Positions 1,878 through 22,113 of a stretch of 64,000 nucleotides of DNA are shown here, in pieces (position 1 is the stretch's first letter; each line of letters begins with the position of its first letter). The position numbers were made by a program, and so were the translations under genes. Source of the DNA: a virus; the IMG/VR virus record IMGVR_UViG_3300007735_001031, positions 1 to 64,000 of that record. The stretch is one strand, 5' to 3'. A model generated the notes under the pieces. That model had not been told where the DNA came from and searched no databases. It saw only the letters and a list, made by a program, of their open reading frames with translations.

Positions 1878-1889
1878 TAATCTTCTTGC

Positions 1890-2051
1890 TCACTTGCCGC
1901 CTCGCAGATAGTTGTTGAACCGAGCCGAGTAGATCGACGCGGAAAGGTTATTGTGATAGGCACGTTCCGCCAGATAAGCGGAAAGCCACGGATTCTTTGC
2001 GGTCAGCTTCTCGACCAGCTTGAGGTAATCCTTACGCTTCTCGTTCTTCAT
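1890..2051 (-). CDS. 53-aa hypothetical early protein (MKNEKRKDYLKL...)
   Basis: manual translation; GGAGGT SD in repeated leader. Confidence 0.7.
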   Translation of the reverse strand: MKNEKRKDYLKLVEKLTAKNPWLSAYLAERAYHNNLSASIYSARFNNYLRGGK

Positions 2052-2078
2052 GGGGAACCTCCGAAGATTGTTTAGGGT

Positions 2079-2243
2079 TTAGAAGTCGGTGCAATCATAC
2101 GCAAGCCAACGATCTTCACAATCGTCGCAACTGCAGAACTCGTCAGCAGAATTGTAGAACGAAGCATAAGCCTCATCCTCCGCACGGATCTGCTCCATCA
2201 GTTCGATCATAGCAGAATCGTCCATGTTATCAAAGTACTTCAT
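2079..2243 (-). CDS. 54-aa highly acidic early protein
   Basis: manual translation MKYFDNMDDSAMIELMEQIRAEDEAYASFYNSADEFCSCDDCEDRWLAYDCTDF; AGGAGGT SD. Confidence 0.7.
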   Translation of the reverse strand: MKYFDNMDDSAMIELMEQIRAEDEAYASFYNSADEFCSCDDCEDRWLAYDCTDF

Positions 2244-2256
2244 GAAACCTCCTGTT

Positions 2257-2634
2257 TTACTGGTAGAAGCTGAGTTCGCGTTGAAGATCAGCGAGTTCTG
2301 AGTTGAGCTTGGCGATTTCCTCTTTCACTTCAGCGATCTGCTCCATGATCCGTTGTTCTGGCGTCTTGCGACGTTGCAGACGACCGATCCTTTCAAGCGT
2401 GGGGAACGTGGCTTCCAGAGAGCCAAACCACTTCTTGGAATCCCCACTTGCGTTTTGTTCATCGACAACGAAACCGTTGTCCCACCAATAGATCTCGAAA
2501 GCACTGATTCGATCACGGTATTCCATCGGATTGGTGAAACGAGCGCCACCAACAGCAGTTGGCTCAAACGCTTCGTATCCTTGAGCCATTGGGAATACGT
2601 GATTCAGTTGATCGCAAACGTAGTTCTGCTTCAT
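2257..2634 (-). CDS. hypothetical early protein with C-terminal coiled coil
   Basis: ORF track; start moved to MKQNY after AGGAGGT SD. Confidence 0.75.
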   Translation of the reverse strand: MKQNYVCDQLNHVFPMAQGYEAFEPTAVGGARFTNPMEYRDRISAFEIYWWDNGFVVDEQNASGDSKKWFGSLEATFPTLERIGRLQRRKTPEQRIMEQIAEVKEEIAKLNSELADLQRELSFYQ

Positions 2635-2670
2635 TGGAACCTCCTGCAATCATTGAGGGTTTGTAAGTTA

Positions 2671-2745
2671 TGGTGTCCCCAGCGGGAATCGAACCCGCGT
2701 TGCTGGATTGAAAGTCCAGAGTTCTAACCGCTGAACTATAGGGAC
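2671..2745 (-). tRNA. tRNA-Glu(TTC)
   Basis: cloverleaf, CTGGA-CTTTCAA-TCCAG, encoded CCA. Confidence 0.95.
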
Positions 2746-2833
2746 TTGGCGAAGGCTTTGGACTTTGCTCGCTTATAGCCCTCGATAACTGGGCGAGCGC
2801 ACTACGTTTTGAGGCACAACGCAGAAACCTTAG

Positions 2834-2906
2834 TGGATTGAGAGGGGATCGAACCCACGACAAACGGATTAAGAGTCCGCTGCTCTACCAACTGAGCTAT
2901 CAATCC
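2834..2906 (-). tRNA. tRNA-Lys(CTT)
   Basis: cloverleaf, GCGGA-CTCTTAA-TCCGT. Confidence 0.95.
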
Positions 2907-2908
2907 GA

Positions 2909-3049
2909 GGTGTTGGAAGGGCTAACCGCTGCCTTATCGGTGGTCTGCCCTTTCGTGCTCCAACATCACGCCTTATGCTTAGGAAGCCCAACTTGCGGCA
3001 ACCACGCCGCTTCTCATCGTGGAGTTAGCTACCACTATTCAGCGGTTAG
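2909..3049 (-). ncRNA. candidate pseudoknotted RNA
   Basis: crossing helices 2909-2922/2947-2967 and 2922-2931/3040-3049 plus small hairpins. Confidence 0.4.
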
Positions 3050-3065
3050 GCTGAAACGTAAGTCC

Positions 3066-3144
3066 GAGTTGGACGCTTGTGAGGGGCAAGCTCACATTCC
3101 GCAATATTCTTGCGGTCTTGCGCTTAGATGAAAGCGTCCAACTC
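3066..3144 (-). ncRNA. candidate structured RNA abutting the tRNA-Ile 3' end
   Basis: 13-bp closing stem GAGTTGGACGCTT/AAGCGTCCAACTC with two internal hairpins. Confidence 0.5.
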
Positions 3145-3221
3145 TGGTAGGCTTGGGTGGACTTGAACCACCGACCCCCGCTTTATCAGAGCGGTATTCT
3201 AACCAACTGAACTACAAGCCT
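3145..3221 (-). tRNA. tRNA-Ile(GAT)
   Basis: cloverleaf, CCGCT-CTGATAA-AGCGG, encoded CCA. Confidence 0.95.
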
Positions 3222-3224
3222 AAC

Positions 3225-3682
3225 GCTAGTTTCATGAAAGGATGAGCCTTATTCAAACCAGCAAAGTTCAGGCTATCCGCTTGTTTCATAACTTCCTCCG
3301 AGAACAAGCAAACGGCGGGAAGTGCCGGTTCATAATAACCTTTCCCCTATGAACCGGCAAGTTCAGGGAAAGACCGCCTATCTTATCAACAATCCGCATA
3401 CGATGGGCAACTTTGCGAATTGTCAAGGTTGATCTAACGCACAACCATTCCGCCACCTTGAGGATCATGGTTATTCGGTTGCTGCTTTCAATAACTTACA
3501 GGCAGCGAAGCGCAACTGAACTGCCTGCTAAGTGCTGATTGTCTTTTACGATTTCACAAGCAATCGCAACTTGTGGAAAGGGTTAGCTTGACGGTGCGTG
3601 CTAACCGACGCTGTTGCTTCGCGTTTCAGCCGAAGCGGGGAGGCTGCCTTTATTGGGTTGGCAGCAAACCCTATGAAACTGC
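3225..3682 (-). ncRNA. candidate large (~460 nt) ornate structured RNA
   Basis: closing stem AGTTTCAT/ATGAAACT, about ten internal helices, apparent pseudoknots, no credible ORF. Confidence 0.6.
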
Positions 3683-3736
3683 TTCTCTTGCCTACCTCCG
3701 GCAAAGCCTTTGGTATCGCCTCAGCAGCTTCCTTTG

Positions 3737-3831
3737 TGATTCTGTGAGGTTGCGGTTATCAGCAGATTCCCAAGCGGAATCCCGACTTGCCCCTGCTCTG
3801 TTGCAGGCTTCCCCGCAACCCCACAGAATCA
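3737..3831 (-). ncRNA. candidate structured RNA (three-way junction)
   Basis: 19-bp closing stem with one G-U (valid on minus strand), hairpins CCTGC/GCAGG and GATTCC/GGAATC. Confidence 0.5.
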
Positions 3832-3838
3832 TTGGAGA

Positions 3839-4621
3839 CTACGCCTCGACTTCGAGGCTCACATCGTCATCAGTCTCAACGGCTTCCGCCTCGACGCCGA
3901 TCTCGTCGCTGTCGTCGCTCGCGTCCACATCGTCAGCCTCGCCAGTCGAAGCCTCAACGATTTCCGCGAGCTGGTCGCGCTGCTCGGTGAGATCACGAAC
4001 CTGCGAGCGCAGATCCGCAACGACCTTCAGCAGTTCCGCCTTGGTCAGCTTGTCGTCCGACTTGCCGCCGTTGGCAGCGATAGCCGCCGCAGCCTCGGGA
4101 TTCAGGAGCTTACCCGTCGCATCGCACTCGAACGCGAGCTTGACCTTCGACGGACGGCCAATGCCAAACGCTTCCACAGCGTTAGTCTCGGGGTTGATAA
4201 ACGTGCGGGGAGTCTTAGTCTTAGTAGCCATCTTGTTCACCTTCTTGGAGTTAGAAACAACCTTCGTATCATCGCCAGCTTGCACCGTGCGAGCCGCGAT
4301 ACCTTCCACAACCTTACCACCTTCCGCAATCAGCGTCAAGGCGGCATCATTATTCGCAATCCGCAGAACCATACCATACTTGGATTGCACAGGAACCACA
4401 ACGCCACGGTTTCGCAGGTTGGAAACCGCCACTTCTACCTTCACCTTCGCCCGCTCCTCATCCTTGTTGAAGTCCTTGAGAATACGAGCATCCTTCGCAA
4501 CGGCGAGCGTGGAAGCACCGTTGCGCTTTTCGGTCAGCACCGTCAGAACCTTTGCGTACATGGGGAGTTCCGACTTGCTGTAGAGGAAGTCACCGACCTT
4601 GATAGTGTTCGTCATAGTCAT
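3839..4621 (-). CDS. early protein with coiled coil and very acidic C-terminal tail
   Basis: ORF track; true start MTMTNT after GGAGGT SD (track extension runs through tRNA-Arg). Confidence 0.85.
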   Translation of the reverse strand: MTMTNTIKVGDFLYSKSELPMYAKVLTVLTEKRNGASTLAVAKDARILKDFNKDEERAKVKVEVAVSNLRNRGVVVPVQSKYGMVLRIANNDAALTLIAEGGKVVEGIAARTVQAGDDTKVVSNSKKVNKMATKTKTPRTFINPETNAVEAFGIGRPSKVKLAFECDATGKLLNPEAAAAIAANGGKSDDKLTKAELLKVVADLRSQVRDLTEQRDQLAEIVEASTGEADDVDASDDSDEIGVEAEAVETDDDVSLEVEA

Positions 4622-4647
4622 TGGAAACCTCCGTACTTTGTTAGGGT

Positions 4648-4710
4648 TTAGTCGCACCAGAAACTTTCGTCGTAAATCCAAGGACAAAGCTGCCAGTCGA
4701 TCTGAATCAT
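4648..4710 (-). CDS. 20-aa peptide (MIQIDWQLCPWIYDESFWCD)
   Basis: manual translation; full copy of the repeated leader with GGAGGT SD. Confidence 0.5.
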   Translation of the reverse strand: MIQIDWQLCPWIYDESFWCD

Positions 4711-4737
4711 CGGAACCTCCGATTATTGTTAGGGTTT

Positions 4738-4814
4738 TGGCCTGCTTGGTAGGATTCGAACCTACGACCCTGTGCTTAGAAGGCACATGCTCTATCCAAC
4801 TGAGCTACAAGCAG
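4738..4814 (-). tRNA. tRNA-Arg(TCT)
   Basis: cloverleaf, TGTGC-CTTCTAA-GCACA, encoded CCA. Confidence 0.95.
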
Positions 4815-4959
4815 AACGCTCTTTCGAGCAAAGACACCGTGTTTCCGCACCCTTCCGCTCCGCTTCCCTCATCGACTTCACCTTTCAGCGTGCTTTCGCA
4901 TACTTAGGGCTTCACCAGAGTTCCACTTCACTTTCAGGCACTTCCGCACCTTGGTTGCT

Positions 4960-5028
4960 AGTGTAGGGTTCTCGCAGTCTTGCGCCCTGCGGCCACAACC
5001 TATGGCAATTCATAGGCATATCTACACT
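4960..5028 (-). ncRNA. candidate structured RNA (three-way junction)
   Basis: AGTGTAG/CTACACT closing stem; CCTATG/CATAGG and CGCAG/CTGCG hairpins. Confidence 0.4.
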
Positions 5029-5064
5029 CGTTCTTGCAGAAGTCGCTGACTTCGCAACCGCTTT

Positions 5065-5079
5065 CAGTTGTCATAGAGC
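5065..5079 (-). promoter_or_regulatory. boxA-like antitermination element
   Basis: GCTCTATGACAACTG ~45 nt downstream of a -10 box; resembles rrn boxA GCTCTTTAACA. Confidence 0.55.
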
Positions 5080-5122
5080 TACGCATCGAGGCGAACCCGC
5101 TGCGTCGTCGTTCGGTCTGCTC

Positions 5123-5151
5123 AGTATACACCGGGCAGCGTCCCTTGTCAA
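5123..5151 (-). promoter_or_regulatory. sigma70-type promoter
   Basis: TTGACA-17-TATACT. Confidence 0.9.
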
Positions 5152-5244
5152 GCCCCGGAACTACGCGGAATCTTTCGATTCGCTTTCGTTCCGCACACTT
5201 TCAGTTCGGGAGCGAACCGCTTAGGCTCACTCGCTCACCCTGCC

Positions 5245-5273
5245 AGTGTATCAGGCTCCGCGTCCGTTGTCAA
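5245..5273 (-). promoter_or_regulatory. sigma70-type promoter
   Basis: TTGACA-17-TACACT. Confidence 0.85.
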
Positions 5274-5367
5274 GCCCGCTAACTACTCGGATTCACTAGG
5301 AACCCTTTGGCTTCGCTTGGCTTCGAGGTCGGGGGCGAACCGCTCAGGCTCGCCGCTTGACCCCTTC

Positions 5368-5396
5368 ACTATACCGCAGACCGGGGAGGCTGTCAA
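5368..5396 (-). promoter_or_regulatory. sigma70-type promoter
   Basis: TTGACA-17-TATAGT. Confidence 0.85.
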
Positions 5397-5509
5397 GCCC
5401 CCGAACTATCGGGAATCATTCGATTCCCTTTCGGTCTGCTTCGCATCGAGTTCGCAGGCTACTTTCGCAAGCAACACGCGAGGTTCGATCGAACGCGAGG
5501 GAAACTGCC

Positions 5510-5524
5510 CAGTTGTCAAAGAGC
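5510..5524 (-). promoter_or_regulatory. boxA-like antitermination element
   Basis: GCTCTTTGACAACTG ~35 nt downstream of a -10 box. Confidence 0.65.
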
Positions 5525-5559
5525 GGTCGGCTTGGCTTGTCCGCCTCACCAACACCCCT

Positions 5560-5588
5560 ACTATAGCGCCAACCGATCCCCTCGTCAA
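5560..5588 (-). promoter_or_regulatory. sigma70-type promoter
   Basis: TTGACG-17-TATAGT. Confidence 0.8.
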
Positions 5589-5589
5589 T

Positions 5590-6045
5590 AGCTGGAATCA
5601 TTGGCCTTTCCGCTAAGTAGTTGGAATCATTACGAAACTTTCTTTCTTAGTGGTTTCAGCGAGTTGGCGTAAGTCCTTGAAATCGTTTGCCCAGGTGCTC
5701 GTTTTCCTAACCTTTCGCGGGGTTGTGCGTAAGTCCTTGATTTCGCGTTTCGCAAAACGCGAAAATCCAGTGATTCCAAGGGGTTCGAAGCCTACGCGGG
5801 CGTGCGCGGTTAGAAGAACTGTATCACGAATTCGTAGGTCGCCAAGTTTATTGAGGAACGAATTCGTCGGTGTTAAAAAGTTAAAGGTTCTAATAAGTTA
5901 GGAACCTATTGAAACCACTGGAAAAGAGTGCTGCCACATAGCCTCGATGTGGCTACACTTGTTTTCGCGACTCAATACTTTCAGTAAGTTATAGCCCTTT
6001 GAAACCATTGAACTTTGGAAAACTTAATAGTTTCAGTAAGTTTCA
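5590..6045. repeat. non-coding array of IHF-site-like repeats
   Basis: CGTAAGTCCTTGA twice, 60 bp apart (5730-5742 matches WATCAANNNNTTR); TTTCAGTAAGTT twice; other degenerate copies. Confidence 0.55.
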
Positions 6046-6486: not shown

Positions 6487-6693
6487 TTATGTAGGAATTG
6501 AAGTTTTACAGCTTATTTCATATCCGTATTTATACCAAATACTGAATAGTTGTGAAACCCAAGCAGGTCCATCTTCTCTATGAGAGAACCAAAAGTTATC
6601 GTAGTCATCAAACATTCCCCAGATCTTTACCGGCATGAGGTCTATACGATTATCTAATTTAATAGTTAATCTGGTTTGTTTCATATCAACCAC
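6487..6693 (-). CDS. small HREDGPA-motif protein
   Basis: HREDGPAW motif; tandem paralog of 6686-6895. Confidence 0.75.
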   Translation of the reverse strand: MVDMKQTRLTIKLDNRIDLMPVKIWGMFDDYDNFWFSHREDGPAWVSQLFSIWYKYGYEISCKTSIPT

Positions 6694-6895
6694 TATACGG
6701 ATAATTTACTCTTGAAATTTCCCTGCCTTTCTGAGACCAAATCATTTCTGTTTCAGAAATCCAAGCAGGCCCATCTTCTCTATGTTGAAACCAGTAATGT
6801 AATATGTAATTAAATTGTTCCCATTTCTTTATCGGCATCATATCCAGCCGATAATCTCTTCTAATTGTTAAGCTGATACATTTTGGCTTTCTCAT
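6686..6895 (-). CDS. small HREDGPA-motif protein
   Basis: HREDGPAW motif; tandem paralog of 6487-6693. Confidence 0.75.
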   Translation of the reverse strand: MRKPKCISLTIRRDYRLDMMPIKKWEQFNYILHYWFQHREDGPAWISETEMIWSQKGREISRVNYPYSG

Positions 6896-7928: not shown

Positions 7929-8376
7929 CTTCATCATCCTTATCTTCTTTCTCTCCGCGCTTCTTCTGGTATTCGGCGGAACAAGTATCACAATGAGCGA
8001 TGTACCAGCCGTTATAACTTCTGTTCTTTCCAGGATTTCCACAATCCTCGCAAGTTCTCGCGGCCATACCAGTTGCGAAGGAGATAAGGAAATCTACAAC
8101 TTCATCGTGTCCGTTCGTATAAACTCGCAGACCACCAAACTTTTCCTTAACTTGGGTGAATTCAACTTGGTGAAACTCTGGATCCTTCTGTTGCTTTCTG
8201 TCGATGTAGCCCTGAATACGACTACAGAGGACTTCCATAATGTTATACCAGCCGTCGCCTACGCATACTCCATAACACATACAAGTAATATTCATAGGAA
8301 GGCTCTTCTGCGCGAACAGCTTGGGATACTTATCATAAAGCTTTTGTTGGAGTTCGTCTTTCATTTTATTCCTCAA
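7909..8376 (-). CDS. conserved phage protein (QVKEKFGGLR motif, CxxC pair)
   Basis: ORF track; recognisable motif. Confidence 0.75.
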   Translation of the reverse strand: MRNKMKDELQQKLYDKYPKLFAQKSLPMNITCMCYGVCVGDGWYNIMEVLCSRIQGYIDRKQQKDPEFHQVEFTQVKEKFGGLRVYTNGHDEVVDFLISFATGMAARTCEDCGNPGKNRSYNGWYIAHCDTCSAEYQKKRGEKEDKDDEDEEEAA

Positions 8377-8551
8377 TATGTCTGATGTGTGATTCTACTT
8401 CGCCGTATAAATAATAGTCAACGAATCCATCTCCATAATCTGCGGCCGGGCCATCTTCTCTATGGAGTTTATCATTTTTATACCAGAACTTAAATGGTGG
8501 GCAATTAAGATCTTCTGGATAATCAATTCGTAATTCTATTACTCTACCCAT
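8366..8551 (-). CDS. small HREDGPA-motif protein
   Basis: WYKNDKLHREDGPA. Confidence 0.75.
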   Translation of the reverse strand: MGRVIELRIDYPEDLNCPPFKFWYKNDKLHREDGPAADYGDGFVDYYLYGEVESHIRHIEE

Positions 8552-9494: not shown

Positions 9495-9557
9495 TTTTCC
9501 TCGTGATCTGGTTGTCTCATCCAACGCCACCAAGAATACCAGCGAGATAAATTGCTG

Positions 9558-9836
9558 TCAACCAGCCGAAGAATCTTCTTCAGAATTTTCTACATCCTTT
9601 TCTGTTATTGGTGATCGTTCAACGATTTCTTTTCCATCGTCGTTAAAGTATCGAATACCTTTTCGTGTTTCAATTCTTTTAAGTTTGCCGTTTTCAAAGT
9701 AGCCGAATGTTTCGGATCCACTACCATAGTCAATAGCAAAGCCGTCTGCTCTATGGTATTGGCCTTCACCATTACGCCAGACCTTTTGGCCTGATGGGAA
9801 TACTTCCAATTCAGCCTTCTTCGTTGAAACTACCAC
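9558..9836 (-). CDS. HREDGPA-like motif protein
   Basis: WRNGEGQYHRADGFAI. Confidence 0.65.
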   Translation of the reverse strand: MVVSTKKAELEVFPSGQKVWRNGEGQYHRADGFAIDYGSGSETFGYFENGKLKRIETRKGIRYFNDDGKEIVERSPITEKDVENSEEDSSAG

Positions 9837-10005
9837 TTAGGAAACTCTCCACACATTCCTGTGCTTCTTCCTTTGTCCTGTATGGAATGGTTCTTACTTC
9901 TTCTTCTCGTCCATCATTCCATACATTAACAAGGTGCGCCCAATAACCGGCAAAGGTTTCGCTAAGCTCGGCAGACACATAACCTTCTCTAATAAATTTC
10001 GCCAT
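9811..10005 (-). CDS. hypothetical protein
   Basis: ORF track. Confidence 0.6.
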   Translation of the reverse strand: MAKFIREGYVSAELSETFAGYWAHLVNVWNDGREEEVRTIPYRTKEEAQECVESFLSGSFNEEG

Positions 10006-10525
10006 GAAACATACTCCCTAAATAATCCTTCCATTCATCTGGAAGTGGGTTATTCTTGGTTGATTTGTTAAAGATCTCAAAGTTGTCGGGAACATAAGGT
10101 TCCTTCAATAGTTTCATTCCTGCTTGTTTTGGTGTTCTATCTTTCTTCTTTTGATTACAAGATACACAGCAAGAAACAATATTCTTCCAATTCGTCTTTC
10201 CGCCCTGCGAAATAGGGAGCACATGGTCCATCGTAAAGGTTCGCTTATCCAGCTTGATTTTACAATACTGGCATTCGTGATTGTCTCTAAGCATTACATT
10301 CGTTCGGCTGAACTTGGCGTTCTTTGCCTGACGATTGCGCTTGATGACTCCCTTTACGAAACGAATGATTGATGGAATCTGGAATGATTCTGAGATCGTA
10401 TTGACGACTCTATCTTTATAGAATTCAATAACCTCAACACGACCAGAGAACCAGAGACAGAAAGCCTCCTTCCAATCAACATACCGCATCGGCTGATAAG
10501 CTGTACTCAATACAAGTGTATCCAT
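9989..10525 (-). CDS. HNH endonuclease (McrA-like)
   Basis: RDxxxCQYC...TMDHVLPISQGG..W.NIV.CCVSCNQKK. Confidence 0.9.
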   Translation of the reverse strand: MDTLVLSTAYQPMRYVDWKEAFCLWFSGRVEVIEFYKDRVVNTISESFQIPSIIRFVKGVIKRNRQAKNAKFSRTNVMLRDNHECQYCKIKLDKRTFTMDHVLPISQGGKTNWKNIVSCCVSCNQKKKDRTPKQAGMKLLKEPYVPDNFEIFNKSTKNNPLPDEWKDYLGSMFHGEIY

Positions 10526-10552
10526 CGTCGTCCCTACCACATAGGCACCACC

Positions 10553-10581
10553 AGTGTAGGCCACCAGTAATTATCTGTCAA
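10553..10581 (-). promoter_or_regulatory. sigma70-type promoter with TAATTA spacer box
   Basis: TTGACA-GATAATTA..-TACACT, 17-nt spacer. Confidence 0.8.
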
Positions 10582-10590
10582 GTGTCTCAT

Positions 10591-10710
10591 TTATTCTAAT
10601 ATGATCCAAGTGGCTCTACCCGCTTCGTTATTCACCAACCAGTGATATTGAAGCCAGGTGCGATTTAACGAGGGTAAATAAGCAACATGGAGTTGAACTT
10701 GCTTTTTCAT
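10591..10710 (-). CDS. 39-aa micro-protein of the xLxV...WxxN family
   Basis: manual translation MKKQVQLHVAYLPSLNRTWLQYHWLVNNEAGRATWIILE; ATGA-coupled to GGCT. Confidence 0.6.
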   Translation of the reverse strand: MKKQVQLHVAYLPSLNRTWLQYHWLVNNEAGRATWIILE

Positions 10711-11141
10711 CGCATCACGTCTGCCTTGATTTGATCAACCTTATCGTGGTAATAAGATCTCCAATCGTTAGCCGGAATCTTCACATCCAAAGCGTTTAAA
10801 GAACCCTTAGCCAAAACATAAATGTAGGCGGCAACAGGATATTCTCTATCGCCAAACACAACATCAACAAGCTTTCGCTGATAGAAATGTGGGCAACCCT
10901 CGAGAACATCCAATCGCTTCAATAGTTCATCACTAACCACATAGAGTTCGCCAAGGATGAACTTTCCTTTATCACTCTCGATAATGCCCGGAAAGTATCC
11001 AAGATCATACATATCGTATCGTTGAATGGTCTTGGCGATGGAAAGATACTTTGCGTTGTTATTACGCAGGATTCCGTTGTTCTGTAGCCCCGAACAAAGG
11101 GAGCCATAAACGAATACCAAGTTCTTATTCTTCTCTTCCAT
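10707..11141 (-). CDS. gamma-glutamylcyclotransferase (AIG2-like)
   Basis: VFVYGSL, GELYVV, LDVLEG..YQR motifs. Confidence 0.9.
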   Translation of the reverse strand: MEEKNKNLVFVYGSLCSGLQNNGILRNNNAKYLSIAKTIQRYDMYDLGYFPGIIESDKGKFILGELYVVSDELLKRLDVLEGCPHFYQRKLVDVVFGDREYPVAAYIYVLAKGSLNALDVKIPANDWRSYYHDKVDQIKADVMR

Positions 11142-11142
11142 T

Positions 11143-11505
11143 TTAATCCTCTCTCTTCTTTTCTACCAAATCTTTCTCAATAAGCGGGAGGATGTTATCA
11201 CTCCAAATATCATTCTTAATTTCTTGGAAATTATCCCAATATCCGTCCGTTTTAGCGTCCTCTTTTGGATAATGGACATATTCCAAAAGAACATGCGGAG
11301 GAATTGTATTCAGACATTCTCTCAGGTTCTCATATTCTTCTCTGTATTCTCTATCATAGATAATATCAGTGATTACATTTTCGGTGGTAATGACTTCAAT
11401 ATCAGCAGAAACAATCTCGTCCTCACCAAGAGCTTGGAGTTCTCCAATCTTTTCTTGGAGATAGTTGATTAGTTCATTAACGGGGATAATTTTTCTGTAA
11501 TACAT
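11143..11505 (-). CDS. hypothetical acidic protein
   Basis: ORF track; GGAGG SD. Confidence 0.7.
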   Translation of the reverse strand: MYYRKIIPVNELINYLQEKIGELQALGEDEIVSADIEVITTENVITDIIYDREYREEYENLRECLNTIPPHVLLEYVHYPKEDAKTDGYWDNFQEIKNDIWSDNILPLIEKDLVEKKRED

Positions 11506-11655
11506 TTAATCCTCCACTTTGACGGAACGAGTGTGAATAGAACCAAAGGTTTTGTGTGGAAATTTGTGATAGGGCTTCTTATTCAGCCACCAAGAATATT
11601 CAATCACGGTTGGATTTATAGAATAAATATCAGTCATTAGAAGATAGGTTTTCAT
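11506..11655 (-). CDS. micro-protein array member 7 (49 aa)
   Basis: MKTYLLMTDIYSINPTVIEYSWWLNKKPYHKFPHKTFGSIHTRSVKVED. Confidence 0.7.
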   Translation of the reverse strand: MKTYLLMTDIYSINPTVIEYSWWLNKKPYHKFPHKTFGSIHTRSVKVED

Positions 11656-11789
11656 AGCCACACAAATCGTCTATTGGTTAATCCAATCTTTTTATCCACA
11701 CAGCAATATAATGGAATTTCGTTCAACCACCAAGAATACTTAACGGCGTTCGTAGCATAACTTTCAACTCTTAAGTGGTATGTTTTCAT
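11652..11789 (-). CDS. micro-protein array member 6 (45 aa)
   Basis: MKTYHLRVESYATNAVKYSWWLNEIPLYCCVDKKIGLTNRRFVWL; ATGA overlaps. Confidence 0.7.
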   Translation of the reverse strand: MKTYHLRVESYATNAVKYSWWLNEIPLYCCVDKKIGLTNRRFVWL

Positions 11790-11899
11790 CTGAATTGTAG
11801 CAACTTAAACTTAAATGTTTTGCCGTTTATCAGCCATTCTTTTCTCAAGAGATCTGGGGCGGAATATTGTTTGCGAATTGTAAATGTATGAATCTTCAT
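11786..11899 (-). CDS. micro-protein array member 5 (37 aa)
   Basis: MKIHTFTIRKQYSAPDLLRKEWLINGKTFKFKLLQFR; ATGA overlaps. Confidence 0.7.
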   Translation of the reverse strand: MKIHTFTIRKQYSAPDLLRKEWLINGKTFKFKLLQFR

Positions 11900-12012
11900 A
11901 GATAAATAAACCTCGTCCAAATTTCATAACCATCAACATAGAATGTTTGGCAAAGACGAGTTGGTATGTATTCCCACTCACTTGTATAGATTTTAAGTTT
12001 GTAGGTTTTCAT
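11896..12012 (-). CDS. micro-protein array member 4 (38 aa)
   Basis: MKTYKLKIYTSEWEYIPTRLCQTFYVDGYEIWTRFIYL. Confidence 0.7.
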   Translation of the reverse strand: MKTYKLKIYTSEWEYIPTRLCQTFYVDGYEIWTRFIYL

Positions 12013-12118
12013 CTAATTTAACGATCCTGCTTCCTGCGAAAACGAATTGATAGTTTATGAACCAAGAATACTTAATATAATATCGTGTTTGAAATACTCT
12101 CAACTCATATCTTTTCAT
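11993..12118 (-). CDS. micro-protein array member 3 (41 aa)
   Basis: MKRYELRVFQTRYYIKYSWFINYQFVFAGSRIVKLDENLQT. Confidence 0.7.
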   Translation of the reverse strand: MKRYELRVFQTRYYIKYSWFINYQFVFAGSRIVKLDENLQT

Positions 12119-12231
12119 AGATCAACATATATTCTAATTCTTTTGCCTTGGTTCTTTAGCCCAAACCATTCATAACGAACAAACGGCTCGGACACACTAA
12201 CTATCTCAACACTTAATTCAATCGTTCTCAT
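12115..12231 (-). CDS. micro-protein array member 2 (38 aa)
   Basis: MRTIELSVEIVSVSEPFVRYEWFGLKNQGKRIRIYVDL. Confidence 0.7.
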   Translation of the reverse strand: MRTIELSVEIVSVSEPFVRYEWFGLKNQGKRIRIYVDL

Positions 12232-12331
12232 GATAAACAAACCATTGTTTAATACAACGATGATCAACAAACTTACGATACATCAAGGCATTACTTCTAC
12301 ATACATTAACATCTAATTCAATCGTTCTCAT
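12218..12331 (-). CDS. micro-protein array member 1 (37 aa)
   Basis: MRTIELDVNVCRSNALMYRKFVDHRCIKQWFVYHEND; ATGA-coupled to the deaminase. Confidence 0.7.
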   Translation of the reverse strand: MRTIELDVNVCRSNALMYRKFVDHRCIKQWFVYHEND

Positions 12332-12738
12332 AGCTTCATCATCTCAAAGTATCCATCCTCAGTAGAGTAGAATACACGCTTGCTTCCACAGAATCGCATA
12401 GCTTCCTGACACATAGAACAAGGCTTGGAGTTGCGATACTCATTCTCATAATTCACACGAACAACATAAACATCGGCTCCCTCGGTGGAGTCCTTCGCCA
12501 TATTAAGAATGGCTCCGAGTTCAGCGTGAAGCGTTGCCTGTCCCTTAGTTCTGCAACGAAAGCGACCACCAAAAGAACAAGGCTTATCCTTGTTGTGGGA
12601 AGCATTTAGGACAACCCCGTGCTTCACCAAAACGGCACCATGACGAAACTTTCCGTAGCTGGAAAGCTCCGCCATTCTCTTTGCGAACTCAAACATTCGC
12701 TCGTTTCGTCTGGTAAGATCAATAGTTCTGATATACAC
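12328..12738 (-). CDS. cytidine/dCMP deaminase-fold zinc deaminase
   Basis: HGAVLV, HAE, SKPCSMC; start placed at the GTG after GAGGAG, downstream of the promoter. Confidence 0.85.
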   Translation of the reverse strand: MYIRTIDLTRRNERMFEFAKRMAELSSYGKFRHGAVLVKHGVVLNASHNKDKPCSFGGRFRCRTKGQATLHAELGAILNMAKDSTEGADVYVVRVNYENEYRNSKPCSMCQEAMRFCGSKRVFYSTEDGYFEMMKL

Positions 12739-12759
12739 GACACCGCTCCTCACCCTCAC

Positions 12760-12788
12760 AGCATACAGGGGAGATAATTACAGGTCAA
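12760..12788 (-). promoter_or_regulatory. sigma70-type promoter with TAATTA spacer box
   Basis: TTGACC-TGTAATTA..TG-TATGCT, 17-nt spacer. Confidence 0.75.
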
Positions 12789-12915
12789 GCTTGCTAATAA
12801 TGTTTCTATAATACCTTTCATTATAGAATCTTCCATTCTTTAACCATTCACGGCGAATAAGATCACCACCGAATAACCTAACTACCAGTTTGTATTCCGC
12901 GATCTCTGGCTTCAT
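12778..12915 (-). CDS. 45-aa micro-protein of the xLxV...WxxN family
   Basis: manual translation MKPEIAEYKLVVRLFGGDLIRREWLKNGRFYNERYYRNIISKLDL. Confidence 0.55.
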   Translation of the reverse strand: MKPEIAEYKLVVRLFGGDLIRREWLKNGRFYNERYYRNIISKLDL

Positions 12916-13093
12916 GTTCGTCGTCAATCCATATTCCATTTATGTAATAATCCTTATTCATTCCTTCAAAAGAGTCATAAATAAAAGCAGGGCCATCCAT
13001 TCTGTGAAGTCCATCGCCATTTCCCCACAATTTAGCGGGCATACGATCAAACTCAATTTTGTTATATTCCACAGAAAGGGTTATTACTCTCAT
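12878..13093 (-). CDS. small HREDGPA-motif protein
   Basis: MRVITLSV...LHRMDGPAF...YYING. Confidence 0.75.
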   Translation of the reverse strand: MRVITLSVEYNKIEFDRMPAKLWGNGDGLHRMDGPAFIYDSFEGMNKDYYINGIWIDDEHEARDRGIQTGS

Positions 13094-13401
13094 ATCAGCC
13101 CACGATCCTTCCCGTCAATACAGAAATCACATTCGCCTCTTCCATCGCAGAAACAGCAGGAGAAATATTTATCTACATTCTCTTTCACTTCTGCTTCCGA
13201 CATTTTAGCAATATCTTTGGCGAATTGTTCGGCTGAATCAAATGCTCCACAATTACAATCGTGCCAATCTTTATACCAGCCGCAAGTTGGTGAATGTTCC
13301 TCTTCACCATACTGGCAACCAACAGAACACCACAAACGATTCAACTCGTTGCTACCAATCTGATATTCTTTTCCACAAACACAGCAGTTAAGCGTTATCA
13401 T
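13090..13401 (-). CDS. Cys-rich hypothetical protein
   Basis: multiple CxxC motifs. Confidence 0.65.
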   Translation of the reverse strand: MITLNCCVCGKEYQIGSNELNRLWCSVGCQYGEEEHSPTCGWYKDWHDCNCGAFDSAEQFAKDIAKMSEAEVKENVDKYFSCCFCDGRGECDFCIDGKDRGLI

Positions 13402-13406
13402 TTTGA

Positions 13407-13580
13407 TTATTCATATGCTCCAATATCAAAAAACTTTCCTTCCTTATCAAAGGAAAGAATGGATACGAAACCAGAATATCCTTTCTCAACTGAGATAAAA
13501 GTAAAGTTTTCATCGTGTTCTCCGCGAAAATCAATATTCTGCCGCTCAAGCCAAGAGATAAATGTTTCAAGTTCGGTCAT
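13407..13580 (-). CDS. 57-aa hypothetical protein (MTELETFISW...)
   Basis: manual translation; fills the gap better than track ORF 13388-13570. Confidence 0.55.
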   Translation of the reverse strand: MTELETFISWLERQNIDFRGEHDENFTFISVEKGYSGFVSILSFDKEGKFFDIGAYE

Positions 13581-13583
13581 TAT

Positions 13584-13736
13584 TTACCCCACCATCCATT
13601 CTTCGTCTTTATATTCTGTAATGACGCTCCAAAGCAATCCTAAAAGATTCTCGTTTGTATGTAAATAGCAGGAATAAGAACAGACCCAAACAGGCTTTTT
13701 GCTTATCACTCCTGCTTTCTCACGAAAGATTTTCAT
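13584..13736 (-). CDS. 50-aa hypothetical protein (MKIFREKAG...)
   Basis: manual translation. Confidence 0.45.
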   Translation of the reverse strand: MKIFREKAGVISKKPVWVCSYSCYLHTNENLLGLLWSVITEYKDEEWMVG

Positions 13737-13846
13737 TTTGATTACCACGATCTCCAAAAGATATATAGGACAAGGAATCCCATAACAAAGTAAAGTCCTT
13801 CCGGATTTTCTTTTACAACATTAAACGCTTCAATCATTTTTTCCTT

Positions 13847-14209
13847 TGGTGGAGACGCCGCGAGTCGAACGCGGGTCTTGAATAATAATTGTAATCACTC
13901 ATTCACAGGAATAGCCAAACACCCAGCAGTTCAGCAGACCACCCAAAATATTGGGAACTTCATATGATTTTCTTTAAGGTAGAAACCATTAAAATAACCA
14001 ATTGTGGATATTCTTTTCGGCAGTATCCAAGCTTATCCAAACTTATTTTACAGAGCGTTTGGCAACTCCGTTTAACTAAGCTGCTAGAGCGTAATTAAAA
14101 GTTTCAACATTATCGTTGGCACTTAAACATTTCAGCGTTTTTACGATGCCACGCTGCCCATCGTCCTGCATAATTACAAATCTTACCCAATCGAAACCAG
14201 TTCGTCCCC
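13847..14209 (-). ncRNA. ssrA: tmRNA
   Basis: 5' GGGGACGAACTGGTTTCGA, 3' GTTCGACTCGCGGCGTCTCCACCA with G3-U; tag ORF ANDNVETFNYALAA* at 14120-14076. Confidence 0.95.
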
Positions 14210-14214
14210 TTATG

Positions 14215-14469
14215 TTATTCCTTCTTTTCTAGCGAGGTGAAGGCACCTTCCTCAATTAGTTTATACACTTGTCGAACATTTTTAAGTGTCTGAAACAGAA
14301 CAGCATGGGAGGGAGGAATAGAAATAATATTCTGTCCTTCGAACTCCATTAAGTCCTGCTCCACAACAACATCTAATTCTTGCGCGACAATATTCTCGAG
14401 ATTGTCGATAAGGCCTTCCATAGTTCGCTTGGTATAATCCTTATCATAAGACCAATAACGATTACGCAT
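14215..14469 (-). CDS. hypothetical protein
   Basis: ORF track; GAGG SD. Confidence 0.7.
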   Translation of the reverse strand: MRNRYWSYDKDYTKRTMEGLIDNLENIVAQELDVVVEQDLMEFEGQNIISIPPSHAVLFQTLKNVRQVYKLIEEGAFTSLEKKE

Positions 14470-14659
14470 TTCGTCCTCTAAACTTGTAGTTTTGGATGTT
14501 ATAAATGTATTGAGCAGATTGGAGAACTTGATTCTCCTTCTCTTCCTTCTGTTCGCACCAGAAGCATACGCCGTTTCTCATATCTCTAATGTCGTGCTCA
14601 ACACCACACTTCTTACAGGTTGCCGTATTCATAATGAAGTCCTCCTCTGCTATACACTA

Positions 14660-14688
14660 ACTATAGCAGAGGAGGAAATCTGTGTCAA
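14660..14688 (-). promoter_or_regulatory. sigma70-type promoter overlapped by a 14-bp inverted repeat
   Basis: TTGACA-17-TATAGT; CCTCCTCTGCTATA/TATAGCAGAGGAGG at 14641-14675. Confidence 0.8.
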
Positions 14689-14704
14689 GGGGAGTTAAAA
14701 GAGA

Positions 14705-15088
14705 TTATCCGTTGTCTAATATTTTACCAACAGTTTCAACAACTTCATCAAGAGTTGAGCAGAACCTGCCTTTAACTCTAACTCCGAAATCATCATTATC
14801 AATTGCTAAGAACATAAAAATATCATCGCTGGATGACTTACCATGTTTGTTGCCGTTATAAAAGATACCTGCGATTCCTTGAGTTTGAATTTCAAACTTA
14901 CCAGGACCAAACTCTCGATCTAATCTATCTACGATTTGATCAAGAATTGGCTTTCCTTTTCCTCTATTTGCTTTTAGCCCAAATCCACTACGACCACCAG
15001 CGGAAGGAGAAGCTCTACCAAAATCACCTTCATCTAAGGTATCTTGGATTGCCTCTAAAATCATTTTCTTTAATAATCTATCGTTCAT
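14705..15088 (-). CDS. putative late/virion-associated protein
   Basis: MNDRLLKKMILEAIQDTLDE leader; ACTATTTAT upstream at 15114-15122. Confidence 0.7.
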   Translation of the reverse strand: MNDRLLKKMILEAIQDTLDEGDFGRASPSAGGRSGFGLKANRGKGKPILDQIVDRLDREFGPGKFEIQTQGIAGIFYNGNKHGKSSSDDIFMFLAIDNDDFGVRVKGRFCSTLDEVVETVGKILDNG

Positions 15089-16593: not shown

Positions 16594-16669
16594 TGGTGCC
16601 GCCAGAGGGAGTCGAACCCCCGACCACATGATTACAAATCAAGTGCTCTACCAACTGAGCTATGACGGC
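16594..16669 (-). tRNA. tRNA-Thr(TGT)
   Basis: cloverleaf, TGA-TTTGTAA-TCA, encoded CCA. Confidence 0.93.
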
Positions 16670-16678
16670 TTCTTTTAC

Positions 16679-16879
16679 TCATAGGTCTAGCATAGCAGAC
16701 CCATATTTCTCGCGCAAGTTATCAAAGAATTGTTTTGAGGCGAGAATGATTTTATCTGTATTCAATTTCTTCTTTGCTTTTAGTGTTAATAACTGACCAG
16801 CAAACAAAGACATATCAGCCCAACGCGGGGACAAGATATAATATTTCTCACCATCAAAAATATACTCTATAGTTGTCAT
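16679..16879 (-). CDS. hypothetical protein
   Basis: ORF track. Confidence 0.55.
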   Translation of the reverse strand: MTTIEYIFDGEKYYILSPRWADMSLFAGQLLTLKAKKKLNTDKIILASKQFFDNLREKYGSAMLDL

Positions 16880-16899
16880 CTTTTTAAGTAGTTATTTTC

Positions 16900-16988
16900 T
16901 GGCGGAAACGACAGGATTTGAACCTGTGGAACCAAAAAGGTTCGGCGGTTTAGCAAACCGCTGCTTTCGGCCACTCAGCCACGTTTCC
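16900..16988 (-). tRNA. tRNA-Ser(GCT)
   Basis: long variable arm, GCGGT-TTGCTAA-ACCGC, G73, CCA. Confidence 0.95.
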
Positions 16989-16989
16989 A

Positions 16990-17682
16990 TTATCTTAACG
17001 CTTCTGTCATCCTTATCGCTGAGTTCCCAACCTTACCATGATACCAAGGAGAAGTCAAGGGGTGGATCTCCAACAATAAGTTCTTTGACTTCTCAATTCT
17101 TTTTACTGAGGTTTGCGTTCCAGTTCCTTTTAAATACCAAATTTCAGTTCTAATTGGTTGCTTATTCAAACAGCTATTCCAAGCTTTATCTAGCCAATCA
17201 CCATAAGAAGCATCAGACCAAACAACCCAAGTTGGGTTTAGATTACAAAGACCACCAGTTTTCGCTGCTTCTGCTATTGCTTTACCGCCGCGAGAGTGTC
17301 CGACAATAACTAGATTTATTCTCTTATTTGTTTCTGGAACAACTTTTAATGCTGCTCTTACAAACTTTTCAAAGGAATCTTTTTGAGTCCAAGCATGTTG
17401 CCCATGCGGCTCAATAAGTCTTGTGCTCCAAGGTAATTCTGGATGAATCCATGTAAAAGATTTCTTCTCTTGAACTAGCCATTTAATAGATGGTGCCGTT
17501 CTTTCTTCAAATTCATCTTTATCAAAACCATTCATTCCATGAAACCAAACAATAATATTATGTTGTTTAGCCTCTGGAACTTCGTGATGAACTAGAACCA
17601 CTCCTCTATAATCATTCTCGACCATGGAACCAGTCCAAGTCCATAAGTGAAGAGGTAATAATAATTTTAATAATATACTCAC
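16990..17682 (-). CDS. alpha/beta-hydrolase with N-terminal signal
   Basis: WFHG and GHSRGG nucleophile elbow. Confidence 0.75.
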   Translation of the reverse strand: MSILLKLLLPLHLWTWTGSMVENDYRGVVLVHHEVPEAKQHNIIVWFHGMNGFDKDEFEERTAPSIKWLVQEKKSFTWIHPELPWSTRLIEPHGQHAWTQKDSFEKFVRAALKVVPETNKRINLVIVGHSRGGKAIAEAAKTGGLCNLNPTWVVWSDASYGDWLDKAWNSCLNKQPIRTEIWYLKGTGTQTSVKRIEKSKNLLLEIHPLTSPWYHGKVGNSAIRMTEALR

Positions 17683-17888
17683 TTTTCTCTTTTAGCTCTA
17701 ATTGAATTTAGCCAATCTGATGTAGAATCCAAATCAAATGGCTTAGGAATTGGTAGGAAAGGAAATACGGCATGAAGAAAATAAATTATTGCTGACATTC
17801 CAAGCCTGTAAGTTCCCTTCCAAGCAATAAGCAAATGCTCTAAATATGTTTCTCCAACTGAATGTGGATGCTTTGTAAAAGGATTCAT
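17679..17888 (-). CDS. DUF6356-like protein
   Basis: NPFTKHPHSVGETYLEH...HAVFPF. Confidence 0.75.
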   Translation of the reverse strand: MNPFTKHPHSVGETYLEHLLIAWKGTYRLGMSAIIYFLHAVFPFLPIPKPFDLDSTSDWLNSIRAKREK

Positions 17889-17900
17889 TTTATTCTCCTT

Positions 17901-17989
17901 TGGCGGAAGCTAAGAGATTCGAACTCCTGGATGCTTTTAACATCGACGGTTTTCTAGACCGTTGCCATAAACCACTCGGCCAAACTTCC
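17901..17989 (-). tRNA. tRNA-Ser(AGA)
   Basis: ACGGT-CTAGAAA-ACCGT, long variable arm, G73, CCA. Confidence 0.92.
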
Positions 17990-17997
17990 GTTGTTAT

Positions 17998-18261
17998 TTA
18001 CTTTTCGTGGAAATCAACTGATTCGATTGCTACCAAAGTGATGGGAGTTGATGGATCCAATAAGCCCTGAGCTGTTCTATAAACTGAAGTTCCATTCTCT
18101 CCAAGTTCAACAACTTTATAACAACCTGGATTTGCTTCATCTGGAAAATCCACTAGAATTACCAACTTATTACCCAATCTGGATGGGATCATAAAACAAT
18201 CTCCAACTGCCGCATCAGATAGAACTTTTGGGCTTGAAGGTGTAACGTTATTAATATGCAT
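17998..18261 (-). CDS. hypothetical protein
   Basis: ORF track; AGGAG SD. Confidence 0.7.
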   Translation of the reverse strand: MHINNVTPSSPKVLSDAAVGDCFMIPSRLGNKLVILVDFPDEANPGCYKVVELGENGTSVYRTAQGLLDPSTPITLVAIESVDFHEK

Positions 18262-18291
18262 ATTAAATGTCTCCTATGACATAATAAGTAG

Positions 18292-18375
18292 TGGAGGAAG
18301 AGAGATTCGAACTCCCTAGCCGACAAAGGAACAGATTTACAGTCTGCCGCAACCCGCCATCGTTGCCGTTCCTCC
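18292..18375 (-). tRNA. tRNA-Tyr(GTA)
   Basis: GCAGA-CTGTAAA-TCTGT, long variable arm. Confidence 0.9.
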
Positions 18376-18384
18376 AATATTTAG

Positions 18385-18469
18385 TGCTCCCGGTGAGAAT
18401 CGAACTCACAAGACCCAAAGGGTCGGCAGATTTTAAGTCTGCTGCGTCTACCTGTTTCGCCACAAGAGC
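18385..18469 (-). tRNA. tRNA-Leu(TAA)
   Basis: GCAGA-CTTAAAA-TCTGC, long variable arm. Confidence 0.95.
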
Positions 18470-18481
18470 ATTAACTTTCAG

Positions 18482-18561
18482 TGCGTCGGGAGAGACTTGA
18501 ACTCTCACTCCAAAGGAAGCGGATTTTGAGTCCGCCGCGTCTACCATTCCACCACCAACGC
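18482..18561 (-). tRNA. tRNA-Leu(CAA)
   Basis: GCGGA-CTCAAAA-TCCGC, variable arm. Confidence 0.93.
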
Positions 18562-22040: not shown

Positions 22041-22113
22041 GGTGGACAGTGAGGGAATCGAACCCTCGATCTCGGCTTGCAAAGCCGATGTTATCCCGTT
22101 TAACTAACCGCCC
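22040..22113 (-). tRNA. tRNA-Ala(TGC)
   Basis: G3-U70, TCGGC-TTTGCAA-GCCGA, CCA. Confidence 0.92.

Follow-up and report, generated by a model that had tools for sequence, protein, structure and literature searches.

An 826-bp stretch of viral DNA (positions 11506-12331, minus strand) is wholly tiled by seven open reading frames (ORFs) of 37-49 amino acids, denoted o1 to o7, which lie after the gene of a deaminase-like zinc enzyme and before the gene of a 120-amino acid protein. The window under analysis is the first 64 kb of the 72,348-bp IMG/VR virus record IMGVR_UViG_3300007735_001031, for which CheckV gives a completeness of 39%. There is little doubt that the genes o2, o4, o6 and o7 are real and conserved and that the array varies by whole units. 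The fuller account, in which all seven are real micro-genes that are coupled in translation, belong to one fast-evolving family and lie in a plastic, accessory region, is likely as well, the guess on function that is made below being excluded from this estimate. The core of the array consists of o2, o4, o6 and o7, and the accessory part of o1, o3 and o5. Coordinates of all features are given in Table 1; loci of relatives carry L-numbers, metagenome runs with Logan contigs X-numbers and variants from protein collections P-numbers.

The array contains neither intergenic DNA nor a terminator-like site. Five of the junctions (deaminase/o1, o2/o3, o4/o5, o5/o6 and o6/o7) are ATGA overlaps, two overlaps are longer (14 nt for o1/o2 and 20 nt for o3/o4), and at the far end the TAA stop codon of o7 abuts the ATG of the 120-amino acid ORF (TAAATG). 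In the longer overlaps, the ATGA of the downstream gene is contained in a codon pair of the upstream one: o1, which terminates at an out-of-frame stop 14 nt into o2, ends with ...Y-H-E-N-D, where the His-Glu pair CATGAG contains the ATGA of o2, and o3 ends with ...L-D-E-N-L-Q-T, where the Asp-Glu pair GATGAA contains that of o4. Such tiling exceeds chance: ATG-initiated ORFs of at least 30 amino acids cover 100% of the region, whereas dinucleotide shuffles averaged 20% and peaked at 83%, none of the 2000 reaching 90%, and the best of 328 windows in the antisense control has a coverage of 87.5%. A preliminary description of this DNA had reported seven ORFs of this size filling an 826-bp gap, mostly joined by ATGA and coupled to a zinc deaminase; this observation is confirmed, and the deaminase and o1 do overlap by their stop and start codons. 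The three DNA repeats that it named are present too, the ACCAAGAATACTTAA repeat family having three copies and TAGGTTTTCAT two.

Genes coupled through ATGA overlaps, the downstream ones lacking a Shine-Dalgarno (SD) sequence, are known from phage and bacterial operons. The array resembles these operons in its gapless overlaps that all run in one direction, and differs from them in having seven such junctions in 826 bp, two of them with the longer Asp-Glu or His-Glu overlap. A survey of SD sequences found good ones in front of the deaminase, the 120-amino acid gene and the GGACT-like gene, weak ones for o4 and o5, and at best a marginal purine stretch for o1. Ribosomes would pass from the deaminase down the array by termination-reinitiation, at ATGA or at the longer GATGAA and CATGAG overlaps, and reinitiation at overlapping starts would account for the SD sequences that are missing from the other four ORFs. 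Because of the ATGA overlap, codon 2 must begin with A, which goes some way towards explaining the M-K/R common to the N-termini, and the same constraint would explain why the genes are nearly identical over their first 7-18 nt. The preliminary description had placed the array and the deaminase under one promoter. A sigma-70-like site is located just upstream of the deaminase (12788-12760), and promoter-like sites in general occur at chance frequency (14 seen versus 15.0 +/- 3.9 in shuffles). Of the sites near the array, the best, TTGAGA-18-TATATT (10/12; 12103-12074, minus strand), lies inside the accessory o3 unit.

The products of the seven ORFs constitute a single, unannotated protein family. 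All seven begin with M-[KR]-[TRI]-[YIH]-x-[LF] (MKTY in o4, o6 and o7; MKRY, MKIH or MRTI in the others), compared with none of the 324 other ATG-initiated ORFs of 25-100 amino acids in the 72-kb record, a count that is post hoc because the pattern was derived from the same seven ORFs. A second motif, [YK]-[SEQ]-W-[WFL], is present in six, o4 being the exception; on both motifs, the preliminary description was accurate. The proteins have isoelectric points of 7.8-10.7 (9.4-10.7 in four of the seven) and contain 13-26% Phe, Trp and Tyr, and the pairwise identity among the paralogues is only 10-38%. The paralogy that had been proposed is borne out by leave-one-out profiles, each built from six members and compared with the left-out ORF and 1021 other ORFs of the record: the left-out ORF ranked first in four of the seven cases, with o1 second, o4 third and o5 16th. 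When searched against 5.8e9 clusters, the profile of the family retrieved 23 small proteins, all of 37-49 amino acids and all sharing their start and stop ends with ORFs of the window, namely, 16 of the o2 type, two of the o7 type, one each of the o6, o4 and o1 types, one counterpart of a 39-amino acid family member (see below) and one 49-amino acid protein of the HR type. An exhaustive search of 1.84e9 representatives yielded 36 matches, 13 of them to small proteins (of the o2, o7 and 45-amino acid types). Orthologues of the same length are thus available from public metagenomes for o1 (a single 95%-identical variant, P0028), o2, o4, o6 and o7. No fused or longer forms of the family were found among 2650 candidates, which is weak evidence. 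The family extends beyond the array, with at least two further members nearby, proteins of 39 and 45 amino acids; the ORF of the latter is open up to 12939, and the orthologues favour the inner start.

The preliminary description had interpreted the array as a diversifying gene library, an interpretation that is unsupported because the orthologues evolve under purifying selection. For o2, the ratio of nonsynonymous to synonymous substitution rates (dN/dS) is 0.13-0.34 in the five of seven pairs with a finite dS, two pairs being saturated, and for o4 it is 0.19; the deaminase, which serves as the comparison, has a ratio of 0.02-0.10. The 23 variants of the o2 subfamily share 13 invariant columns (M1, I4, E5, L6, V8, Y20, E21, W22, G24, L25, K26, Q28 and R31) that flank a hypervariable loop, with the length differing by up to ~10 residues. 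Only this loop evolves faster: the ratio of nonsynonymous to synonymous polymorphism (pN/pS) in the loop is at least 1 in close pairs, but with just 1-4 substitutions per pair these counts are too small for a test or for a claim of positive selection. Among metagenomic contigs, eight of the 13 best-supported differences within the array are synonymous in the frames of the ORFs; for o5, all five listed differences fall at third codon positions and four are synonymous; each of the listed 1-nt insertions and deletions belongs to a frame-restoring set (in o5, paired +1/-1 changes at 11854 and 11860), and the sole 3-nt insertion is in frame. Judging from these comparisons, o2, o4, o6 and o7 can be regarded as genes, o5 is probably one, and o1 and o3 may be copies that are either young or in decay. 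The weakest case for a functional gene is that of o3, the argument for which is its family likeness alone.

The array is a cassette-like, polymorphic locus. The closest relative, L012, with a deaminase that is 98-99% identical, aligns with the array with two clean gaps, one of 100 nt, corresponding to the o1 unit and bounded by an 18-nt exact repeat, and one of 106 nt, corresponding to the o3 unit, with TTTTCAT at the junction. The resulting deaminase-ATGA-o2 and o2-ATGA-o4 junctions are intact, and the orthologue of o6 comes after that of o4. Between these two, o5 is represented by a ~20-nt scar, with ACG in place of ATG, so that o5 was apparently lost in L012 rather than gained here. The o4 orthologue of L012 (4521-4679) lacks the ATGA stop (TAT GA changed to TAC GA) and reads through the o5 scar to a length of 52 amino acids. 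Contigs from three studies (X6, X10 and X17) differ from the window in the same manner. A contig of X6 joins 12005 to 12112 ('both 7'), and X10 and X17 have loose ends that match this joint; loose ends that bridge the o1 unit, 12231 to 12332 in X10 and 12213 to 12314 in X6, correspond to the form without o1. Stretches that the contigs cover poorly, such as 12015-12115 in X6 and X10, were not used as evidence on their own. Thus, o3 is absent from L012 and from the contigs of X6, X10 and X17, and is present in a contig of X13 that spans 12030-12604. Comparison of relatives and of contig variants, which the preliminary description had proposed, therefore reveals whole-unit differences. Of its suggestion that the array expands by recombination, the part that stands is the change by whole units at shared start motifs; the direction does not, given that the o5 scar in L012 represents a loss.

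In relatives with a deaminase 84-87% identical, just two members of the family lie behind the deaminase, and o2 is always among them. Altogether, o2 follows the deaminase in 12 of the 12 loci with a deaminase identity of at least 84% whose contig extends past this gene, as the direct neighbour in L002, L003, L012, L014, L018 and L030 and one gene off in L004, L015, L016 and L017. Relatives with a deaminase 58-62% identical carry, at the same position, tandem arrays of an unrelated family of ~60 amino acids, with the motif W-K-[IV]-G-D-L ... Y-G-I-[IV] ... [VI]-x-W-[FIV]; this family has no match in Pfam and is absent from the present record. Its array in L026 (4399-5916) consists of seven copies, the first of which is joined to the deaminase by ATGA, and in L020-L025 and L027-L029 the family is found just past the deaminase.

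The constancy of o2 behind the deaminase, where the other neighbours are shuffled, raises the question of whether o2, and perhaps its paralogues, could be a partner or regulator of this enzyme. MORN-variant immunity proteins neutralise deaminase toxins (YwqK/YwqJ), and an analogous role for o2 might be suggested by the overlap of stop and start codons, which is suggestive of co-translation, and by a sub-threshold match of the deaminase to the toxin-type MafB19-deam family (E 2.2e-4). All the same, we consider this quite unlikely. The best match of the deaminase is to the ordinary dCMP (deoxycytidine monophosphate)/cytidine deaminase family, a search of Pfam found no sequence link to YwqK or MORN_2, the same position is taken by an unrelated small-protein family in the 58-62% relatives, and gene neighbourhood alone is weak ground for binding. 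Prediction of a complex between the deaminase and o2 gave a score of 0.00 against a mark of 0.32, that is, 'no answer', and is counted neither for nor against binding.

The genes of the array begin with 7-18 nt that are nearly identical, and this shared sequence could serve as recombination microhomology, at which whole units would be deleted or duplicated. A similar turnover is described by Arbiol et al. (2010, PMC2839356) for the hyperplastic regions of T4-type phages, where small genes are reshuffled as wholes and short cassettes that recur, the PeSLs, are the sites of exchange. The array is like these regions in that small, non-essential genes without assigned function form blocks between conserved genes, in that whole-gene insertions, deletions or replacements separate very close relatives (here, L012 and the contigs of three studies), and in that the boundaries fall in short repeats (here, the 18-nt exact repeat for o1 and the 7-nt TTTTCAT for o3). 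The PeSL, however, is an intergenic cassette of promoter plus stem-loop, whereas in the array the repeat comprises the stop/start overlap and the first codons (7-18 nt); furthermore, the genes of the array are paralogous, belong to one family and are far smaller (37-49 amino acids), and the phage is not T4-like. We read the array as a hyperplastic small-gene region of a large phage, with a coding stop/start overlap as the repeat. Comeau et al., in 2014, reportedly dealt with such regions and with PeSL shuffling as well.

The array genes probably encode small beta-meanders that are mostly basic and rich in aromatic residues. In the layout suggested by the models, an N-terminal strand (M-K/R-T-Y/I-x-L-x-V) would be followed by a variable loop, a strand with 'Y-x-W-[WFL]-x-N' and a short C-terminal strand. 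For o2, AlphaFold2 (AF2), with the family alignment as input, predicts three strands (residues 5-12, 17-23 and 34-37), with a predicted local distance difference test score (pLDDT) of 69.6. The family is probably a reduced relative of the single-unit small proteins of the same phage that contain the unit 'W-x-x-NG-x-x-HR-x-DGPA', hereinafter HR-DGPA, a weak link that is nevertheless the best lead. The HR-DGPA proteins comprise one nine-unit protein and at least four single-unit proteins, and the latter share with the array the N-terminal strand and its spacing to W. The profile of the nine-unit repeat selects four small proteins in the 6.4-13.1 kb region, each with an array-like N-terminus and one unit at constant spacing; the 71-amino acid protein among them appears to bridge the micro-proteins and the HR-DGPA repeat. 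In the same search, o5 is the next match but one, with a non-significant E of 0.62, and the other six array members are outside the best 30 matches. The hhalign comparison of the array family with the single-unit proteins gives a probability of 41.8% (P 2.7e-4). Both groups are predicted to form beta hairpins; for the 61-amino acid single-unit protein, AF2 yields strands 5-10, 20-25 and 28-35, that is, an N-terminal strand plus a hairpin, at a pLDDT of 60.3. The array members differ in that they lack the HR-x-DGPA half and retain the first half only, with W-[WFL]-x-N in four of the seven and 'NG' in o5 alone.

The HR-DGPA repeat presumably resembles MORN or MORN-variant repeats, the sole support from any tool being one automatically named Atlas cluster. 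This cluster, 'DUF6745/MORN repeat variant', is one of many viral small-protein clusters matched by the 61-amino acid protein in the Atlas. The Pfam families MORN and MORN_2 have no match at E <= 10 among the seven array proteins, and the HR-DGPA proteins of the phage are unmatched as well; the nine-unit repeat has no match in Pfam, NCBIfam or PDB sequences, the 525-amino acid protein that carries it hits only a sub-threshold 'lipoprotein' model in NCBIfam, and tblastn of the 61-amino acid protein against GenBank phages finds a single Celeribacter phage (two accessions), over half of the query. A full-text search returned no papers for the HR-DGPA motif strings and, among the 15 papers listed, nothing relevant for MORN repeats together with phage small proteins, and no published description of the array family was found in open full text, supplements and subscription journals being outside the scope of that search.

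The N-terminus of the array proteins allows for a different reading, as a detachable targeting signal of proteins that are packed in the phage head and injected with the DNA, in the manner of the anti-restriction internal proteins of T-even phages. The targeting sequence of T4 is cleaved at an [L/I]-x-E motif. A preprint (bioRxiv 10.1101/2021.01.19.427310) gives this sequence as MKTYQEFIAE; o4, o6 and o7 open with the same MKTY, and past these four residues there is no similarity. The internal proteins of T-even phages are presented in PMC3012670 as highly diverse defence proteins in which only the targeting sequence is conserved. The likeness extends to the polymorphic locus for internal proteins I to III (IPI-III), with its diverse, small, basic proteins and a common short N-terminus, and the array proteins are, indeed, mostly basic. 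We nevertheless rate a targeting signal as very unlikely. None of the seven proteins has the conserved [LI]-x-E at residues 8-12; in the AF2 model, residues 5-12 belong to the fold, as a strand that pairs with that of the W motif, and the small HR-DGPA proteins have the same N-terminal strand; the array proteins are half the size of the internal proteins or less; ATGA coupling alone dictates the A-initial second codon; and the phage, with its DnaE-type polymerase at most 31% identical to those of isolates, is not T4-like. The T4 head protease family (Pfam PF03420) has no match in the 39%-complete record, and because the control genomes were negative too, this result is uninformative.

Several observations weigh against the interpretation of the array as a coupled set of functional, related micro-genes. 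As regards translation, run X17, labelled RNA-Seq, is probably DNA, and two true RNA runs contained 5-6% of the words. Four of the seven ORFs (o2, o3, o6 and o7) have no recognisable SD sequence, a homologue of o3 was sought in the 5.8e9 clusters and none was found, and the leave-one-out rank of o5 is low. Pfam, PHROG and NCBIfam have no match for any of the seven; tblastn of o2 against GenBank phages, that is, sequenced isolates, gives none, and the ESM Atlas contains no usable match to o2. The confidence of the AF2 models is moderate, and no PDB entry reached E <= 0.001 in Foldseek comparisons with the o2 and 61-amino acid models; the highest-ranking entries, among them mitoribosomal proteins, enolase and cGAS, were dismissed on account of their E >= 1. 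The hhalign match is confident over 12 N-terminal columns only, with a W-to-W alignment appearing just at low stringency, and the Y-x-W-x-x-NG pattern is shared by immunoglobulin-like repeats and further beta repeats, as seen in the five large matches, out of 23, that were inspected. Finally, a 319-nt joint (12008 to 12328), with o1-o3 missing, occurs in one contig with a 25-nt side; it was flagged as unreliable and is unconfirmed.

Some of these observations would also fit an array that is decayed sequence, be it non-coding spacer DNA in which ORFs arose by chance or the broken remnant of a single long gene with MORN-like tandem repeats. In favour of this are the small size of the ORFs, the lack of an SD in most of them, the low identity among the paralogues, the lack of a homologue of o3 and the real decay at o5 in L012, where the start is mutated and o4 extended. 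Broken frames in close relatives were, in the preliminary description, the sign of such decay; they occur at the o5 scar and the lost o4 stop of L012, whereas the orthologues generally preserve starts, stops and lengths. Together with the dN/dS values of o2 and o4 well under 1, the preference of the contig differences for third positions, the indels in frame-restoring sets and the failure of all 2000 shuffles to tile the region, this renders decay highly improbable. Moreover, successive ORFs are in different frames, each with its own ATG, an arrangement that repeated breakage of one gene would not yield. Least probable of all is that the micro-ORFs are a mere translational relay that tunes the ribosome flow from the deaminase to the 120-amino acid gene and makes functionless peptides: the stop/start overlaps are unbroken, SDs are absent within the array and the strong SD of the 120-amino acid gene (GGAGGA) is encoded by the final codons of o7, but amino acid motifs are conserved, with 13 invariant columns over 23 o2 variants and dN/dS below 1, the 120-amino acid gene, with an SD to itself, sits elsewhere in relatives, and relatives have just 2-4 units.

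With respect to function, the products of the micro-genes could be dispensable host-interaction or counter-defence factors, each with a different partner. This is a guess by analogy with other small accessory genes of large phages, possible although on balance doubtful, and no family, fold or partner prediction backs an anti-defence or host-interaction role. An unlikely extension, and a bold form of the library that the preliminary description had proposed, is that large aquatic phages maintain behind the deaminase a dedicated cassette site for exchangeable, minimal one-sheet binding modules that recombine at their common stop/start motif. Each module, with a conserved scaffold and a hypervariable loop, would be directed against a different host or defence factor, or the modules would stack into a mixed MORN-like sheet. 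If true, the presence of the ~60-amino acid family at the same site in sister lineages would make this site a general, undescribed 'micro-gene integration hotspot' of phages.

Table 1. Features of the micro-gene array, its repeats, related proteins and other genes of the record (positions in the record)
Feature	Positions	Strand	Remarks
o1, 37 aa	12218-12331	-	accessory 100-nt unit; absent from closest relative L012; leave-one-out rank 2/1021
o2, 38 aa	12115-12231	-	most widespread member; 23 variants aligned; dN/dS 0.13-0.34
o3, 41 aa	11993-12118	-	accessory 106-nt unit; leave-one-out rank 1, E 0.016
o4, 38 aa	11896-12012	-	core member without W motif; orthologue P0027 on 25 contigs; dN/dS 0.19 versus L012
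o5, 37 aa, KEWLINGK motif	11786-11899	-	accessory; ~20-nt scar with mutated start in L012
o6, 45 aa	11652-11789	-	core; clear paralogue of o7; leave-one-out E 4e-8; orthologue P0015, 45 aa
o7, 49 aa	11506-11655	-	core; leave-one-out E 3.5e-7; orthologues P0011 (92%), P0029 (61%) and P0049, each 48-49 aa
Direct repeat bounding the o1 unit	12197-12231 and 12297-12331		spacing 100 nt; 35 nt, 80% identical, last 18 nt exact
TTTTCAT (reverse complement ATGAAAA), at o4 and o3 starts	12005-12118		7-nt junction of the 106-nt o3 unit
39-aa family member	10591-10710	-	best non-array match of the family profile, E 0.0074; orthologue P0017 on 13 contigs
45-aa family member REWLKNGRFYNE	12778-12915	-	just upstream of deaminase; orthologues L012, L013, P0051, P0053; dN/dS 0.18-0.34
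dCMP/cytidine deaminase-like zinc enzyme, 136 aa	12328-12738	-	Pfam PF00383, 2.5e-13; PHROG 174 'dCMP deaminase', 2e-15
120-aa protein directly downstream of the array	11143-11505	-	own strong SD; relatives upstream of deaminase in other phages
GGACT-like gene	10707-11141	-	ATGA overlap with the 39-aa family member; good SD
525-aa protein with nine C-terminal 'EWYKNGKLHRxDGPA' units	48531-50108	-	multi-repeat relative; N-terminal domain without assigned function
61-aa single-unit protein, MGRVIELRIDY ... FWYKNDKLHREDGPA	8366-8551	-	repeat-unit profile 2e-8
71-aa protein, N-terminus MRVITLSVEY, then 'LWGNGDGLHRMDGPA' unit	12878-13093	-	repeat-unit profile E 1.8e-4
Two adjacent ~68-aa proteins with 'HREDGPAW' units	6487-6693 and 6686-6895	-	repeat-unit profile E 0.011 and 6e-4
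DnaE-type polymerase	41235-44642	-	PHROG 405, 5e-239; closest isolate match 31% identical
GroEL-type chaperonin	34386-35957	-	PHROG 5725, 1e-134

Nearly all genes of the record are on the minus strand, and they include those for a DnaE-type DNA polymerase, GroEL, ribonucleotide reductase, 14 tRNAs and a transfer-messenger RNA (tmRNA). The combination of a polymerase whose identity to those of sequenced isolates does not exceed 31%, the lack of a DNA match to GenBank phages (megablast and blastn with positions 10500-13500 of the window) and the presence of near-identical DNA in aquatic, sediment and viral metagenomes from nine studies points to an uncultivated large aquatic phage. The longest ORF of the deaminase reaches GTG 12759; the most likely start is GTG 12738, which is preceded by GAGGAG at a distance of 7 nt and fits the N-termini of the orthologues. 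The N-terminus of the deaminase, M-Y-I-R-T-I-D-L, echoes the M-R-T-I-E-L of o1 and o2. Relatives of the 120-amino acid gene are located upstream of the deaminase in L012 (2978-3334) and L003 (4125-4595), and here the gene is downstream of the array, so that the neighbourhood has been rearranged besides varying in content; scans of IMG/VR with this protein and with o7 found no relatives. The tmRNA (13847-14209, minus strand; Rfam RF00023, 119 bits, full length), with the tag ANDNVETFNYALAA according to ARAGORN, sits ~1.1 kb upstream, in the sense of transcription, of the deaminase and the array, and it is the only Rfam match within 9500-15000, the array containing no RNA family. The 14 tRNA genes form three clusters on the minus strand (935-4814, 16594-18561 and 22040-22277), the first of which coincides with a stretch of 50% GC content (1-6000), and the 'provirus' (host flank) label of IMG/VR may be wrong.

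Genes as short as those of the array are usually dropped by annotation pipelines, and o3 is in none of the protein collections searched. As the array shows, ORFs of this size may well be genuine, conserved genes that are gained or lost as units. It is a compact model both for the gain and loss of accessory genes through microhomology in the stop/start overlap and for the reach of translational coupling along a chain of genes without SD sequences. If the proteins are binding modules against host factors, the repertoire of counter-defence would gain a scaffold of very small size; for now, the array is an instructive, if unsurprising, case of phage genome plasticity.

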